Below, one piece after another: positions 1 to 6,400 of a stretch of DNA of 64,000 nt (position 1 is the stretch's first letter; every line of letters begins with the position of its first letter). The notes beneath the pieces are model-generated. The model ran no database searches. It worked only from the letters and a program-made list of their open reading frames with translations, and was not told where the DNA came from. The stretch is from a phage: NCBI GenBank assembly GCA_018015315.1, contig GCA_018015315.1_3629.1; one strand, given 5' to 3'. Made by a program: the position numbers and the translations under genes.

Positions 1-660
1 ATACTCACCTAGAGGGTGTGCGGCATTAAAGATGCACAGTGGACGGCTGACGTAATAGTCTCCGGGTGTATAAAAATTGTTGAGGTCTTTCACTAGAACA
101 TTCTTATCAGTCACTTCATTTATAACATCATGCATATCGCACATCTTTATATGTTTGAGGATTCCATCCCCCGTCACAAAATAAAAACTTGCTGAGACAC
201 TTTCGGCATAGATCTTACTAGATCCGTTGTAGTTGTATTTTACTCGGATGCTAACGGGGGTTTTTCCTGTCGCGTTAGCCATCATCCAAAGAAATGGCAG
301 CTCATACTTCTCCTCTGAGGAAACAAAAGGTGAGGTAGCCAGAGATCGAAAACCTCCAGAGAAGTTGAAAGTTACAGAACCGCTCCGGCGGTATGATACC
401 GCGTATTCTACTTTTATATCGACGTACCCATTGGAATAGGTGTGTCCTTCATTATCTAAATATGTCCACTTATCAGACCCAGATACCAATCTACGCTCAA
501 TAACCTTCATCACTACAGGAATTAGTGGGTTGGTACAAACCGCTTTTGAAGTAGCTTTATCATCTAAAGCCTCGTAAATTGCAGAAAGGATGTCCCCAGC
601 TGAAAGATTGGTTGTTATGTCCTGTTTCCACCGCGTACTAAAACTGTTAAGATTTGCCAT
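1..660 (-). CDS. hypothetical protein, 5' part only (continues past window start)
   Basis: Reverse-strand frame open for all 220 codons from ATG at 660 to the window edge; AGGAG-like RBS upstream at 667-671 on the minus strand. Not in the ORF track because no stop lies inside the window. Confidence 0.5.
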   Translation of the reverse strand, partial: MANLNSFSTRWKQDITTNLSAGDILSAIYEALDDKATSKAVCTNPLIPVVMKVIERRLVSGSDKWTYLDNEGHTYSNGYVDIKVEYAVSYRRSGSVTFNFSGGFRSLATSPFVSSEEKYELPFLWMMANATGKTPVSIRVKYNYNGSSKIYAESVSASFYFVTGDGILKHIKMCDMHDVINEVTDKNVLVKDLNNFYTPGDYYVSRPLCIFNAAHPLGEY

Positions 661-736
661 GAGGGAGTGCTCCTATGTTAGTTTTATTTCTAATGGGTGC
701 ACTATATCGGAGATTTAGAGTAAAGTCAACACGTTT

Positions 737-1780
737 TTGATGTTGACATCTATTGAAACAATTGATACGATTTCTTCACTTACAGAGCACGAGAGACAAC
801 TCATGAATCTTGAAAAATATTATACACCAGAAGAGTTAGAGCGCCTGCTCAAAAAATATAGACGCAAACAGAATAATGCACGGAAACGAGATATAGAGTT
901 CGACCTGTCATGGGAAGAATACCTCCTATTTGGTAAAAAACTTTTAGGAGATGGAGTATGCGACTATACCCTTATACCTTTTGACATGCACACAGATGAA
1001 AACGGGCTGGGAAATCCTTTCTACCCATCTCTGGAGCGGATAGATGATGAAGGTCCTTATGCGGTTGATAACTGTTGTGTAGTGGGATTGAGATGCAACT
1101 CTCTAAAGGACTGTCTGGTAGATAAAAAGACTGCAGTCTTGATTAAAGACGAAACTGATCGAAAAATTGTCCAGCAGATGATGCTCCACCTGAGCGAAGA
1201 GCGTATGGAGAAATTGAAAGGTGATTATACTTTTGAAGATTTCATCTTGCAATATGGAACGGAAGAGGATAAACTAGCACTCTTTGACGAAGAAGAGGAG
1301 GAAGATATGCTACCGATGTCTAAAGTTACTTATCGTGCACCCAAGAAGCACATTTCCGACATTGTAAACGAGCCTATCACAGAAGAGATTGAAGAAATGA
1401 CGCAACAGGTGCATGAAGAGGAAAAAGAGACTCAGGAGGTCGAAGAGGAGCTTACAGAAGAGGTTCCTGCACTACCTGATGATGTTGAGATTGCCAAAGC
1501 TTACACTTTCTATTGTCAAACGTTCTACGATGTAGGTATGAAAGTTGATCTGTCGTTCAGCCAATTTAAGAGTTCGTATATTCGCAAATGCTGTGCTTTA
1601 ACTGGTGAACGTCTTGGAGCTGGACTTAAACCCCTGTTGGTGACCGACTGGAATAAAGGTTTCACTAAAGGAAACTTTATGGTAGTATCTCCAATTATGG
1701 AGAAAGCTATGACAGATCTTATGAAGACCACCCGCATGACAATGACCGAGTTGGCAGGTATTTTCAAACACGTTAAATAA
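737..1780 (+). CDS. hypothetical protein with an internally duplicated Cys-containing domain and acidic linker
   Basis: 347-aa ORF; N-terminal segment (FDLSWEEY...GVCDYT) and C-terminal segment (VDLSFSQF...KCCALTGE) look like two copies of one domain, separated by an E/D-rich stretch. Exact start uncertain. Confidence 0.5.
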   Translation: MMLTSIETIDTISSLTEHERQLMNLEKYYTPEELERLLKKYRRKQNNARKRDIEFDLSWEEYLLFGKKLLGDGVCDYTLIPFDMHTDENGLGNPFYPSLERIDDEGPYAVDNCCVVGLRCNSLKDCLVDKKTAVLIKDETDRKIVQQMMLHLSEERMEKLKGDYTFEDFILQYGTEEDKLALFDEEEEEDMLPMSKVTYRAPKKHISDIVNEPITEEIEEMTQQVHEEEKETQEVEEELTEEVPALPDDVEIAKAYTFYCQTFYDVGMKVDLSFSQFKSSYIRKCCALTGERLGAGLKPLLVTDWNKGFTKGNFMVVSPIMEKAMTDLMKTTRMTMTELAGIFKHVK

Positions 1781-1792
1781 TGACAGGGGCCA

Positions 1793-3274
1793 ATGGCCCC
1801 TTCTGGAGTTTTAATGGATATCAGAAGTTCAGAAATCATTGCCTCACAAAAAGATGATGCCCTGAGAATGTTGCAGGCTGCACGTATGTATCTCCTTGAA
1901 AAGCTGCCGTTTTATGGCACACTGCTGTCAGGATTGCAGTTCGTAGAAAACCATACATGGTGCTCCACCATGGCAACCGACCATAAACGCATCTATTACA
2001 GTCCTGAGTTCATTATGGGGTTGGCTGATGAACGTAAGGCTATTCTTAAGGCTTCTCTAACTGACGAGCAGTTTGAGATGGCTGAGGTTTTCTATTCCCC
2101 CAAATCTGTGAAAGAGGTGGCCTTTCTTCTGTCGCATGAGGTGGGGCATATTATCTGTGATCACCTGGTCCGTGGTAAAAGCTTTGAGCCGGAACTGTTC
2201 AATATTGCTTGTGATCACGTTATCAACACAGGACTTGTGGTTGACTTTAGCAAGCCTCCTTGTGTTTTCTTCCCGAAGGGGAAAAGCACTACGTTCGTGA
2301 AAGGTAAGCCTTTTGGCTTCTTAGCCAGCTGCTACTGCGATATGAAGTTTCATGGATGGATTGCTGAGAACGTTTATGCAGTTCTTGATAAGCAAAGAGA
2401 TCAGAATAACGGTAAAAGTAAGAACGGTAAAGGTGAGAACTCTCAAGGTGATAAGCGACAAACAGATGATCACATGAGTGGGAACGGTGGCACCAGTGAT
2501 GATCTTGGAAAAGCTATAGGGTATGATCAGCCACAACCTGTAATCAGCCAATCTGATAAAGATCAGGCCATGCAGGACTCTGGTGATATGCTGGAGGCAG
2601 CAATGCAAGCGTCCGGAGGCCGTTGCCCCGAGGCGGTGCGTGAGTTTGTCAAGAACAGAGGTAAGCCTGTAATCAACTATATAGACATCATTAAGCAACG
2701 CATGTTGTCTAAACGAAAGGCTGAACTGACCTACAGAAAACCTGGTCGCCGATCTGGGTCTTTGACCAGCACAATGCGAAAAGTTGGGGCTATAAACAAG
2801 AACCAGCACGTTATTGTTCCTGGTCGTAATCCGGAAAACACTATAGATATTGTGGTGGCTTTAGACGTTTCTGGCTCGATCTCTCAAAGAACTTTAAAGA
2901 AAATGTTCAATGAAATCACCGGATTGTGCAATCTGTATAAAGAGTTTAAGGTTACAATGTTCTGTTGGTCAACTGAGGTTGGAGAGGTTAAAGTATACAC
3001 TCGCGGCAACATAGACGAGATGATTAACTATGAGGTCCACTCAACATGGGGCACAACAGCTGCTTGCGTGTTCGAGTATCTGGATGCCAACATACCGAAT
3101 GCAAAAGATGTCATCGTCCTGACCGACCTATACTTTGAGCATAACTTTGAACAAAAGGTTGTTGACAACAAGTGGAAAAAGTACGATACTTTATGGGTTC
3201 TAACCGAAGGGTATAATAAAAATTATATCCCGAGCTTTGGGAAAACTGTGGAATTAATCGAGTACGCTAAGTAA
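1793..3274 (+). CDS. putative Zn-metallopeptidase / von Willebrand A domain protein
   Basis: HExxH motif (SHEVGHIICDH) in the N-terminal half; vWA MIDAS-like motif DxSGS (LDVSGSIS) in the C-terminal half; 493 aa. Confidence 0.7.
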   Translation: MAPSGVLMDIRSSEIIASQKDDALRMLQAARMYLLEKLPFYGTLLSGLQFVENHTWCSTMATDHKRIYYSPEFIMGLADERKAILKASLTDEQFEMAEVFYSPKSVKEVAFLLSHEVGHIICDHLVRGKSFEPELFNIACDHVINTGLVVDFSKPPCVFFPKGKSTTFVKGKPFGFLASCYCDMKFHGWIAENVYAVLDKQRDQNNGKSKNGKGENSQGDKRQTDDHMSGNGGTSDDLGKAIGYDQPQPVISQSDKDQAMQDSGDMLEAAMQASGGRCPEAVREFVKNRGKPVINYIDIIKQRMLSKRKAELTYRKPGRRSGSLTSTMRKVGAINKNQHVIVPGRNPENTIDIVVALDVSGSISQRTLKKMFNEITGLCNLYKEFKVTMFCWSTEVGEVKVYTRGNIDEMINYEVHSTWGTTAACVFEYLDANIPNAKDVIVLTDLYFEHNFEQKVVDNKWKKYDTLWVLTEGYNKNYIPSFGKTVELIEYAK

Positions 3275-3289
3275 GAGAGGAGGTTATTT

Positions 3290-3553
3290 ATGGCAACAGA
3301 GTTAAAATTTGCATCAAACCGTAAAACTAAGAAGTATCTGTCCTCAGTAGCTCCAGGCACTGTGGTGATGTTTGTTGATGAACTTGGGGATGTGAATACA
3401 GCACTTGTTGTAAAATCACATCCTGCAAACATATATGTTGGGGTATTTGACCTGTTCAGAAAGGTGTTTGTAGAACTACCTCACAGTTTGGTTGTTACAG
3501 AAATGGATGCCTGCATAGAAATTCTTGGCGAAGTTATGGTGGAGGAACAATAA
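3290..3553 (+). CDS. small hypothetical protein, paralog 1 of a tandem array of four
   Basis: 87 aa; GAGGAGG RBS upstream; shares size and motifs (GTVV..., V.E.D..I.ILGE) with the next three ORFs. Confidence 0.6.
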   Translation: MATELKFASNRKTKKYLSSVAPGTVVMFVDELGDVNTALVVKSHPANIYVGVFDLFRKVFVELPHSLVVTEMDACIEILGEVMVEEQ

Positions 3554-3819
3554 TGGCTACTAGCATTGTATTCAATTCTAAGGTGAAGAACAAAAAGCGT
3601 GCAGACAGTTTTCCGTGTGGGACCGTGGTAAGTTGCGACGGAGACGGCATTCAAAACATAGTTATGATTGTCAAAACAGGAGAACATTGTGTGTGGGGGT
3701 TCGATTTAGAAAATAATGAGTTGTACGATCTGCCGCCAAACATGAAAGTTACAGAGCTTGACACCAAAATTACCATCCTTGGAGAGGCAAGCTATTCAAA
3801 AGAAGGAGGAGAACAATGA
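3553..3819 (+). CDS. small hypothetical protein, paralog 2
   Basis: 88 aa; start overlaps the previous stop (ATAATGG); same motifs as paralog 1. Confidence 0.6.
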   Translation: MATSIVFNSKVKNKKRADSFPCGTVVSCDGDGIQNIVMIVKTGEHCVWGFDLENNELYDLPPNMKVTELDTKITILGEASYSKEGGEQ

Positions 3820-4079
3820 CCACAAAAATCACTATCGCAGAACCGAAAGCTAACACTCAACCTATCGAAAAGTTTAAGTGCGGTGAGGTGGTAACATTCA
3901 CACCAGATAATGAAGATGCTAAGATTTTCGCAATGGTCACAGCTGAGTGGATGTGTGACAACACCACACAGGTTCTGCGTTTTGACACCTATCTTACCGA
4001 CGAAATCAGGAACGACAAGATCGTGACTGGTGTGGATACTGAGATTGTTTTCTACAAGAGCTTTTTAGAGGGTTTCTGA
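3816..4079 (+). CDS. small hypothetical protein, paralog 3
   Basis: 87 aa; ATGA start/stop overlap with paralog 2; CGEVV motif in the same position. Confidence 0.55.
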   Translation: MTTKITIAEPKANTQPIEKFKCGEVVTFTPDNEDAKIFAMVTAEWMCDNTTQVLRFDTYLTDEIRNDKIVTGVDTEIVFYKSFLEGF

Positions 4080-4080
4080 T

Positions 4081-4314
4081 ATGGCAAAAATTCGTAAATT
4101 ATCCAGCAATCAGGTTGTGAAAGACTTTGAATCTGGAGAGATTCTGTATGTTCGTGATGCAGATGACGAATGTGAAGATCTTGTTATGTTGGTGGGGCAC
4201 GCTGAGGACGGATGCATCCAAGCTGTTTTTCTTGAAACAGCTATGGTGCACTGGATAGAGCTGGACCTGAAAGCACGAAAACCTAAAGCAGAAATCCTGA
4301 TTTACGAAGATTAA
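4081..4314 (+). CDS. small hypothetical protein, paralog 4 (more diverged)
   Basis: 77 aa; similar size and acidic character, weaker similarity to the other three. Confidence 0.5.
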   Translation: MAKIRKLSSNQVVKDFESGEILYVRDADDECEDLVMLVGHAEDGCIQAVFLETAMVHWIELDLKARKPKAEILIYED

Positions 4315-4330
4315 CAAAAAGGAGAGAGCC

Positions 4331-4780
4331 GTGTTGAGCAAACGTGAATGCGACAGCATTAGCCTGAATTCTTATAAGAAACAATGGTTTGGAGTGGAAG
4401 TTTGCCGACTGCGGCTAGGCTCCTACCTGAACTTCGTTTATTATGAAAGCGATAGTCGTATCGTTTCTTATGAAGTGTTCTACACTAAGAACACCTTCGA
4501 ACTGCGCCGTAAAGTGGATGGTGGGAGAACTACCCCCCAGAATAATTGGGAAACTATCCTACCTACAGATGTTATAGGAAGTCCACTGAATGTATCTGAA
4601 GATGAAAATCTTATGGTTCATGCTATGATGGGACTTGACAGCTTAGAGCTGGCGATCTATGATATGTCCATCGAAGCAGTTAAGCTGGACTACATCGAAA
4701 ACACTTTAGAGGAAGGTATCAAGAAGTTTCTCAGTGAGAAATTAAAAGACCACTTTCATAAGGAGCTATACCTGTTATGA
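4331..4780 (+). CDS. hypothetical protein
   Basis: 149-aa ORF, GTG start with AAGGAGAGAG RBS; same strand and tight spacing as neighbours. Confidence 0.5.
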   Translation: MLSKRECDSISLNSYKKQWFGVEVCRLRLGSYLNFVYYESDSRIVSYEVFYTKNTFELRRKVDGGRTTPQNNWETILPTDVIGSPLNVSEDENLMVHAMMGLDSLELAIYDMSIEAVKLDYIENTLEEGIKKFLSEKLKDHFHKELYLL

Positions 4781-5022
4781 AGACCCGTAAAGAACGTAAC
4801 AAAATTTTACCTGGAGCTCTAGAACACCTGATGAAGTGCAGATCTATTTGGCACTCTGCCAAGGAAGGGCAGAAGGTGGTTGTGGTTAGTGACAATACCA
4901 ACCCGTTTGGAGATTATACCACTATGATGGCCCCGTATGTCCGTGATGGTGTTGTGGAAGTGGTCCCTTACAACGGTCTGCATGAACGGCACTTTGAAAG
5001 CACTTTGCTAGTGGAGCTATAG
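4777..5022 (+). CDS. hypothetical protein
   Basis: 81-aa ORF with start/stop overlap to the upstream gene. Confidence 0.45.
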   Translation: MKTRKERNKILPGALEHLMKCRSIWHSAKEGQKVVVVSDNTNPFGDYTTMMAPYVRDGVVEVVPYNGLHERHFESTLLVEL

Positions 5023-5024
5023 TC

Positions 5025-5591
5025 ATGGCGGTCAATGTGGCTTACAACACAGGAAAGCTTGACAGAGACATTGGGTGTCTTGTCCTTTCAGATACAGAAG
5101 AGTATTGGGGTTATGGGTTGCTGTCAGACCCACACCCGAGCAACCTTGTATCAACAGTGCTATACCGCTACGACCCTGTGCCAACGGTACACGACAAAGA
5201 CATTCACGACCTCCGGATCAAGTGTCTGGAAGATCTGCTGAACAATGGTTGCAACGATCTGCGGGTAGCCAAAGAGAAGCTTACAAACATTCACAAAGAG
5301 GAAGTGATGAGCACCCTCAGTAAGAGATCAGTGCACAAAAAGATGATGCTGAACTTTGCAATGGGTATCTACATGGACGGGTATAAGGGAGGTGATCCGA
5401 TTCTCAAGCTTCGCTGCCCAACACTGTGGGAAAGAGTGGTTGACAGTAAGGACGGTACTGCCCTGCTTGAGCTACACACTGCAGGTTGGATTTGGAGGTA
5501 TGTGGACGGATACCCTCTGTGGGCATGTGGACCTGGGGAATTTGTTGACAGACCTAGCGCGGTGGTGGACTTACTATTGCAGTTTGAATAA
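5025..5591 (+). CDS. hypothetical protein
   Basis: 188-aa ORF in the operon frame series; shorter overlapping ORFs in other frames judged spurious. Confidence 0.5.
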   Translation: MAVNVAYNTGKLDRDIGCLVLSDTEEYWGYGLLSDPHPSNLVSTVLYRYDPVPTVHDKDIHDLRIKCLEDLLNNGCNDLRVAKEKLTNIHKEEVMSTLSKRSVHKKMMLNFAMGIYMDGYKGGDPILKLRCPTLWERVVDSKDGTALLELHTAGWIWRYVDGYPLWACGPGEFVDRPSAVVDLLLQFE

Positions 5592-5648
5592 AAAGGTGAG
5601 TTATAAGGTATTCATACACCTACCAACAATACAACAGGAGAGACTGAG

Positions 5649-5924
5649 ATGACGAAAGAAGAGGCCGACGTATTAGATTTTGCACTAGAGGCTACGCAGG
5701 AGGCTTTGGTGTTAGCTTGGAAAATGAACCAGCGTGCTGCAGAATGCAACCGCCGCATCAATGAGATTCTGGGCATGTCCATGTATGATTTCACTATGCA
5801 TGCTGGAGAGATTCCTGAATTAACTGCAGAGATGAATGATCTTGACAATAAGATTAATATCATTCTGAAGACAGCAGAAACAACTCACCAAACCGCCCGT
5901 AAATTTATCAACGAGAAGGTGTGA
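5649..5924 (+). CDS. hypothetical protein
   Basis: 91-aa ORF; AGGAGAGA RBS upstream. Confidence 0.5.
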   Translation: MTKEEADVLDFALEATQEALVLAWKMNQRAAECNRRINEILGMSMYDFTMHAGEIPELTAEMNDLDNKINIILKTAETTHQTARKFINEKV

Positions 5925-6400
5925 ATATGGACTACAGCTACTGCGGGGAAGAAGTTCCTTTTAACTACAGCAATCTTACCACGAGCAATCCATATGAGAC
6001 TCGCCACGGCACACACATCATTGCCATTGACTTTGATGGAACGTTTAATGCGAGCCCTTTCATCTTCTCCCGCCTGATCAGGGATCTGAAGAAGGAGAGG
6101 TGGACAGTCTACCTTGTGACTTCTCGGTTCATCACTCAAGACAACGTGGACATTGAATATTGGCGCAAGGAGCTTGATGTTGGGGTGTTTTATACTGGCG
6201 GTGTTCAGAAGGCAGCCTACCTGGCGCAGTTTGATATCTACCCAGATATCTGGATTGATGATTCTCCGGCATGTATTCCGGCTAAAAATCAGTTAGAGTT
6301 TGCAATGAAGGAGATTGAGTACAAGTCTGATGCTAAGCGGAACGGATGGCCCTTTATTATTGAAGATTACCCAGACCCTGAGCCGGAGAAAGAGCCATGA
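5921..6400 (+). CDS. HAD-superfamily phosphatase (putative nucleotidase or 3'-phosphatase)
   Basis: HAD motif I DxDGT (IAIDFDGTF), motif II (VYLVTSR), motif IV (IWIDDS); 159 aa. Confidence 0.65.
   Translation: MNMDYSYCGEEVPFNYSNLTTSNPYETRHGTHIIAIDFDGTFNASPFIFSRLIRDLKKERWTVYLVTSRFITQDNVDIEYWRKELDVGVFYTGGVQKAAYLAQFDIYPDIWIDDSPACIPAKNQLEFAMKEIEYKSDAKRNGWPFIIEDYPDPEPEKEP

Follow-up and report, generated by a model that had tools for sequence, protein, structure and literature searches.

R.PacI (PDB 3LDY/3M7K) is a homodimeric type IIP restriction endonuclease of the HNH kind, built from a 142-residue chain; it has two active sites and as many Cys4 zinc sites. Passages of a review (PMC4081073) give the ligands of its catalytic metal as one Asp and one Asn and state that a Tyr replaces His as the general base, and N113 is named as a metal ligand in a passage of a further source (PMC3996161). 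The other described system that matters here is Srd of phage T4, which, in the relevant passages of the literature, accelerates host mRNA decay through RNase E (PMC4980113, PMC7430671) and binds the N-terminal half of that enzyme (PMC4980113, PMC13232886), the reported mechanism being one of protein binding. The T4 record in GenBank carries for the same protein the note “postulated decoy of sigma factors.”

A third point of reference concerns evolution. Single-chain LAGLIDADG homing endonucleases represent homodimers that became tandem-repeat monomers, the halves of which then diverged; the route is the same as the one considered below by analogy only, the fold being unrelated.

Here we describe a gene in the first 2 kb of a 64,000-nt stretch of phage DNA (GenBank assembly GCA_018015315.1, contig GCA_018015315.1_3629.1), which is referred to as the window. 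Its product consists of tandem, diverged, PacI-like HNH domains that lack the customary His and are connected through a helical extension followed by a disordered linker, acidic in this clade. Among HNH proteins this tandem arrangement is a new variation.

An early-region gene of rV5-like phages

The first 6 kb of the window (nt 1-6000) match 119 records and share 98% identity with the genomes of rV5-like Vequintavirus phages, JLBYU08, LL12, and Murica among them. Within this region ORF 737-1780 is a conserved early-region gene; it lies directly downstream of a divergent intergenic region and heads a rightward block of small genes. Early expression is suggested by the predicted sigma-70-like promoter immediately upstream.

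That promoter, which has 10 of 12 consensus matches in a consensus scan, sits within the 5′ end of the mechanical ORF, and for this reason the choice of start codon deserves some care. ATG 803 is probably the true start, and the 66 nt at 737-802 are probably noncoding, because the promoter lies inside them; because the record of phage Gotham annotates a promoter at the same site and the CDS at 803-1780; because the resulting 325 residues are the length of several proteins at NCBI; because distant homologues begin at about residue 23 of the 347-residue ORF; and because GAGAG stands 7-12 nt upstream of ATG 803. Inspection of the sequence upstream of 740 revealed no Shine-Dalgarno sequence, and residues 1-20 of the longer ORF reach an AF2 pLDDT of just 54-77. 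Residue numbers throughout are those of the 347-residue ORF.

The intergenic region has a feature of its own. An inverted repeat with an 8-bp stem, GTCAACATCAAAAACGTGTTGAC (725-747), falls exactly between two back-to-back sigma-70-like promoters, both of which are annotated in phage Gotham too, and it could be an operator or another regulatory site shared by the divergent early transcription units.

Full-length homologues are present in more than 200 phage records. The protein is found at ≥80% identity in about 118 records, compared with the 119 that hold the surrounding 6-kb region, and Proteus phage Mydo has a homologue at the same divergent-promoter position, with synteny kept. The gene is fixed, not sporadic, among its relatives. 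As an aside for users of the databases, 16 records named “Campylobacter phage,” for which the host is entered as C. jejuni, contain this E. coli rV5-like region at ≥90% identity; these look like mislabelled or contaminating rV5-like phages.

The product belongs to PHROG 3118, which it matches over its full length (E=8.3e-113; residues 25-346 on profile positions 2-286 of 287) and which is labelled “HNH endonuclease.” The N-terminal module also matches phrog_3322 (“endonuclease”), phrog_1035 (“endonuclease VII”), phrog_4592 (“decoy of host sigma70”), and phrog_1400 (“Srd”); the C-terminal module alone matches its own family and nothing else among the PHROGs. The sister families 3322, 1035, and 4592 share the N-type core, and some of their members have two intact copies. 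Pfam and NCBIfam gave no usable match for the protein or for 41+8 relatives, nor did PADLOC for the protein. The names that GenBank and NCBI give to members of the family conflict with one another, ranging over anti-sigma factor, anti-termination protein, HNH endonuclease, type II restriction endonuclease, and hypothetical protein. The gene is thus a member of a known but inconsistently annotated phage family with no characterised member.

Some observations on the neighbouring genes may be recorded here. Downstream of the stop codon (1778-1780) and ahead of the next gene there is a GC-rich hairpin, GGGGCC-AAT-GGCCCC (1786-1800), which includes ATG 1793. Since GGAG (1805-1808) stands 5 nt ahead of ATG 1814, the sequence suggests that the downstream gene starts at 1814, as in the Gotham annotation, and not at 1793. 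PHROG 1314 mislabels this gene, which encodes a DUF2201 fusion, as “HNH endonuclease.” In relatives a MoxR-like ATPase is encoded about 3 kb upstream on the other strand, and together the two look like a phage MoxR/VWA pair. Functional coupling of ORF 737-1780 with the DUF2201 gene was considered and rejected: the arrangement reflects synteny within the Vequintavirinae and is absent in Aeromonas phiA009 and Klebsiella FBKp34. Among the relatives compared, the DUF2201 gene and the MoxR-like ATPase co-occur with a homologue of ORF 737-1780 only within that subfamily. In the array of four small genes that follows, paralogy is clear for the first two (39.5% identity, E=5e-12), and the remaining pair resembles them in size and pattern, without significance by BLAST.

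Table 1. Coordinates of the gene, its modules, and its surroundings in the window
Feature	Position (nt)	Strand	Description
Divergent sigma-70-like promoters	701-729 and 743-771	- and +	-35 elements overlapped by the inverted repeat at 725-747
Mechanical ORF	737..1780	+	347 aa; starts TTG 737 or ATG 740
Sigma-70-like promoter (predicted)	743..771	+	TTGACA, 17-nt spacer, TACGAT, TG extended -10
Most likely CDS	803..1780	+	325 aa, from ATG 803
N copy, PacI-like HNH (beta-beta-alpha-metal) core, predicted	842..1126	+	Residues 36-130; pLDDT >90; PHROG and PacI profile matches
Putative active-site codons, N copy	1034-1039; 1058-1060; 1070-1072; 1097-1099; 1106-1108	+	E100-R101; Y108; N112; N121; K124
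Helical extension of N module, conserved	1127..1303	+	Residues 131-189; AF2 helices
Disordered linker core (predicted)	1304..1456	+	Residues 190-240; pLDDT <50
C copy, degenerate HNH-like module	1475..1777	+	Residues 247-347
C-copy segment homologous to N copy	1532-1744	+	Residues 266-336
Putative metallopeptidase (DUF2201_N) and VWA-like (DUF2201) fusion	1793/1814-3274	+	Pfam E=5e-28 and 6e-11; HExxH motif HEVGH
Tandem array of four small genes	3290-4314	+	77-88 aa each; stops and starts touching or overlapping

Two diverged copies of one domain

The original prediction, made from the sequence of this stretch, held that two related segments flank an acidic one, and profile methods bear this out, with modules at about residues 36-130 and 250-336. 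Profiles were needed for the purpose, because BLASTP with single sequences, in which the N half was compared with the C half, yields no significant match (best E=1.9). With a family alignment of 56 sequences (A2) as input, hhalign aligned residues 36-130 with 250-330 in a single consistent register over 79 columns, with a score of 23.4 and P=8e-4. The scores of 200 column shuffles had a mean of 10.8 (sd 2.2) and a maximum of 19.9, such that none of the 200 reached the observed value, and reversed profiles scored 7-10. Self-alignment therefore does reveal significant intramolecular similarity once family profiles are used, although plain BLASTP fails to do so.

Profiles from other members of the family point the same way. 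One made from the N-type copies of distant relatives, and from nothing else (A4), matches the window protein's own C module (266-336) with E=1.9e-6 and 17.2 bits, compared with 8.9 bits for the best of about 1800 shuffles and -1.7 for the reversed sequence. The C-type profile, in turn, cross-matches in register the N-type domains of remote relatives (P0224, 3e-15; P0235, 1e-9; P0239, 4e-9), and the N-type profile matches some downstream copies among the relatives, of which an exhaustive profile search returned 4118 at E≤1e-3. The hhalign result and these cross-matches confirm the duplication, and the product consists of two diverged tandem copies of one domain.

Structure prediction gives a matching picture. 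The AF2 model of the full protein has a pLDDT of 82.9, rising above 90 in both modules, and the C module modelled alone reaches 91.6. Each secondary-structure element of one module has its counterpart in the other, in the order long helix, short strand, helix, beta-hairpin, and helix. Those that would make up the beta-beta-alpha-metal motif are E97-101, E113-117, and H118-129 in the N copy and E300-302, E314-316, and H319-332 in the C copy. The extension of the N module is modelled as helices 139-151, 154-160, 166-173, and 176-189, and within the close family D141, I144, M148, L150, S153, L160, and Y164 are invariant in it.

Both modules are predicted to adopt the HNH (beta-beta-alpha-metal) fold. 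PacI (3LDY) heads the Foldseek list against the PDB for the full model (E=0.041, which is weak; TM 0.52 on target) and also for the C module alone (E=0.042, again weak; probability 0.97; TM 0.56 on query). It is followed in both lists by other HNH nucleases, among them Cas9 HNH, McrA, Gme HNH, pyocin/colicin DNases, Hpy99I, Cap5, and T4 endonuclease VII; the lists are almost purely HNH nucleases, yet with E-values that are weak throughout (0.04 and above). PacI is also the one chain that the N-type profile matches among PDB sequences (E=5.7e-4), a search in which single-sequence phmmer returned noise only. PacI is therefore both the top structural match and the sole sequence-profile match in the PDB.

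Full-length superposition on two-domain relatives from BFVD gives an RMSD of 17-34 Å and hence no sign of a fixed arrangement between the modules.

Active-site residues in the two copies

What, then, has become of the active site in each copy? By profile alignment, D92-R93 of PacI pair with E100-R101 of the N copy, Y100 with Y108, N104 with N112, N113 with N121, and K116 with K124. The two proteins thus have in common a D/E-R … GY..N … N..K pattern, with Arg where the canonical general-base His stands, and the N copy, as aligned, keeps every residue that pairs with the active-site region of PacI.

The assessment of conservation covered 245 N-terminal copies, among which 143 are representatives at ≤50% identity. 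Position 100 is E or D without exception, and R101, Y108, and N112 are each present in 100%. N121 is kept in 98%, the sole substitute being His, which is the other canonical HNH metal ligand; K124 is likewise kept in 98%. The position of the canonical general-base His is Arg in all 245, like R93 of PacI. On the strength of this alignment we infer that R101 (R93 in PacI) occupies the place of the canonical HNH His and that Y108 (Y100 in PacI) is the catalytic Tyr. The pattern of metal ligands, namely an acidic residue ending beta-1, a helix Asn or His, and a structural Asn, is present in the N copy (E100, N112, and N121) and not in the C copy.

The zinc site has fared less well. The PacI zinc ligands are C63, C66, C109, and C112; Cys stands opposite just two of them, C66 (C75) and C112 (C120), and the CxxC…CxxC arrangement was not found in the N copy; C75, kept in 99% of N copies, is the one aligned Cys conserved family-wide. 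The segments had also been described as Cys-containing, and Cys is indeed found at 75, 113, 114, 120, 126, 260, 285, and 286. As a defining trait, however, this is weak, for C75 in the N copy and its equivalent C286 in the C copy are the only Cys conserved family-wide. With the PacI zinc site mostly lost and C75 alone conserved, the Cys-containing aspect is best seen as a vestige.

Among 234 C-type copies, C286, D304, and N313 are retained. In place of the E-R dyad there is either a gap or hydrophobic residues. The Tyr has given way to F, V, I, or L, the equivalent of N121 varies, and at that of K124 the residue is hydrophobic. The C copy has therefore kept the fold and a few structural residues and has lost the residues equivalent to the catalytic ones. 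In 11 relatives both copies have a D-R..Y..N..N-K pattern, and this suggests that the ancestor was a tandem of two live domains.

C-type copies also have a helix signature of their own, L-P-D-D-V-x-[IV]-A-x-x-Y, at residues 247-258 (nt 1475-1510; P247, D249, V250, A253, and Y256 in the window protein). In the 234 copies A253 is present in 90%, Y256 in 94%, and D249 in 72%; N-type copies lack the signature, which recurs in some relatives with a single domain (P0224, P0235, P0239) and may serve as a surface for a specific interaction.

When the whole protein is set beside PacI, the two HNH units that are subunits in the restriction enzyme are tandem copies here. Unlike in PacI, a single chain carries both, few of the zinc ligands remain, and the active-site residues are retained by one unit only; moreover, the window protein is the product of a phage early gene, with no methyltransferase partner seen, and its identity to PacI is low.

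Proposed function and the alternatives

On balance, we lean towards the view that the protein targets host nucleic acid early in infection, binding and probably cutting it in the manner of an asymmetric HNH nuclease contained in a single chain. Where PacI-type nucleases are dimers, this protein would be the equivalent in one chain. The N copy would bind a divalent metal and cut, or at least grip, a nucleic-acid backbone (DNA or RNA), while the dead C copy would serve as a second binding surface and the linker as nothing but a flexible tether. Expression would come early, from the host-type promoter, in the service of host takeover, by direct attack on host nucleic acid and/or, in the manner of Srd, by channelling host RNA to RNase E for decay. 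That the C copy has decayed at the very positions that are fully conserved in the N copy is the pattern expected for an enzyme and not for a docking surface. Several points stand against a nuclease: the absence of the canonical His, with Arg in its place; the loss of most of the CxxC…CxxC zinc site; the weak Foldseek E-values; and the fact that Srd, the sole relative that has been studied, is reported to act by binding RNase E and not as a nuclease.

The last of these points leads to the main rival, an adaptor of the Srd type without catalysis, in which the N module, a pseudo-nuclease, docks on the catalytic N-terminal half of RNase E and stimulates host mRNA decay while the C module makes a second contact. 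We regard this as a real possibility, though one to be doubted; the two readings are not mutually exclusive. It draws on a clear homology. Residues 5-89 of T4 Srd (srd translated from NC_000866) match the N-type profile with E=1.4e-12, phrog_1400 (Srd) matches the N module with E=3e-10, and the N domain of Srd keeps the same residues as the N copy, namely C, E-R, D, Y, N, N, and R. In both proteins the N module thus has the pattern C..ER.D..Y..N..N..R/K, and both are encoded in the early regions of virulent coliphages. The binding of Srd to the N-terminal half of RNase E, as given in passages of PMC4980113 and PMC13232886, and the absence of the His and of most zinc ligands speak for an adaptor as well. 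The homology ends with the N module, however: the C-terminal half of Srd (about residues 100-248) is matched by neither domain profile, so these 150 residues are unrelated, and Srd is without a second HNH-like copy and an acidic linker. The part of Srd that binds RNase E could be either half, the shared or the unshared one. Furthermore, an adaptor does not readily account for a metal-site-like constellation that is fully conserved in the N copy and has decayed at the same positions in the C copy.

The acidic segment between the modules was the subject of the remaining claims of the original prediction. Its existence is not in dispute, since residues 166-246 (nt 1232-1474) hold 28 D/E and 6 K/R in 81 residues, for a net charge of -22. 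Its core (190-240) is predicted to be disordered. Its meaning was thought to be that of a bivalent binding protein or a nucleic-acid mimic. As to the former, two related modules on an acidic tether are a fair description, except that the modules are not generic Cys-rich binders but have PacI-like HNH folds by prediction.

As to the latter, a bivalent binder whose acidic segment mimics nucleic acid, as a decoy for a host protein, or autoinhibits the basic surfaces of its own chain, is in our opinion improbable. The charge itself speaks for it, as do the linkers of the sampled Vequintavirinae-like relatives, which are acidic as well; the basic helix 31-52 (net +5) could be masked and so autoinhibited by the acidic tail, and the modules of relatives are mildly basic (median +4 and +3) and hence maskable. 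Known DNA mimics, in contrast, present rigid charge arrays, and a structured, conserved acidic array was not found in this protein, where pLDDT falls below 50 at 190-240. Across 128 two-domain representatives of the family, the linker varies in sequence, in length (12-113 residues), and in net charge (median -1; 77 negative, 8 neutral, and 43 positive), from which it follows that a mimic is unlikely and that the strong acidity is specific to the clade. All of this fits a flexible tether with clade-specific acidity.

Many GenBank records call the protein an anti-sigma factor, or decoy of sigma-70, a function to which we attach very little credence. The support consists of database names that derive from T4 Srd. 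Comparison of E. coli RpoD with the protein by BLASTP and with both domain profiles showed no meaningful similarity; the RpoD matches span 29-35 residues at pairwise E-values of 0.003-0.03, and one of them, in an acidic low-complexity stretch, is gone with SEG masking. Similarity to RpoD was accordingly rejected. The only short RpoD-like stretch of Srd, residues 89-118, is outside the region that it shares with the window protein, and no anti-sigma model in Pfam or NCBIfam matches the protein. Given the lack of RpoD similarity and the conflict among names, with other records calling the same protein an HNH endonuclease, an anti-termination protein, or a restriction endonuclease, the anti-sigma label is inherited, not evidenced.

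A selfish HNH homing endonuclease, as an HNH-type fold in a phage genome and the label of PHROG 3118 might bring to mind, is highly unlikely, since the gene is fixed at the same locus in essentially all relatives as the first gene behind an early promoter, with no sporadic presence or absence among close relatives (about 118 records with the protein, against 119 with the surrounding region) and no appended DNA-binding modules of the homing type seen (no Pfam matches).

A broader proposal may be put forward tentatively, at odds as we believe with the better chance: that the whole Srd-like superfamily (T4 Srd together with PHROGs 3118, 3322, 1035, and 4592; more than 4000 proteins at E≤1e-3) consists of active, Tyr-dependent HNH nucleases of the PacI type, and not of sigma decoys or passive adaptors. 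Cleavage of the HNH type leaves 5′-phosphate ends, and RNase E prefers 5′-monophosphorylated substrates, which nicks in host RNA could thus supply unaided; a catalytic Srd family could for this reason, speculatively, explain the “stimulation” of RNase E by Srd. If the proposal is true, the window protein would represent a dimeric enzyme turned naturally into a single chain, with one copy live and the other dead.

It is worth setting out what these findings mean for the family. The Srd family is now tied to a structurally defined enzyme, PacI, and residues E100, R101, Y108, N112, N121, and K124 are candidates with which to separate a catalytic from an adaptor mechanism of host RNA/DNA decay. 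The unsupported “anti-sigma factor” label, which is found in well over 100 genomes of rV5-like and related phages, is now corrected. Lastly, a tandem of one live and one dead copy would illustrate cleanly how a dimeric nuclease can turn into a single chain with unlike halves.
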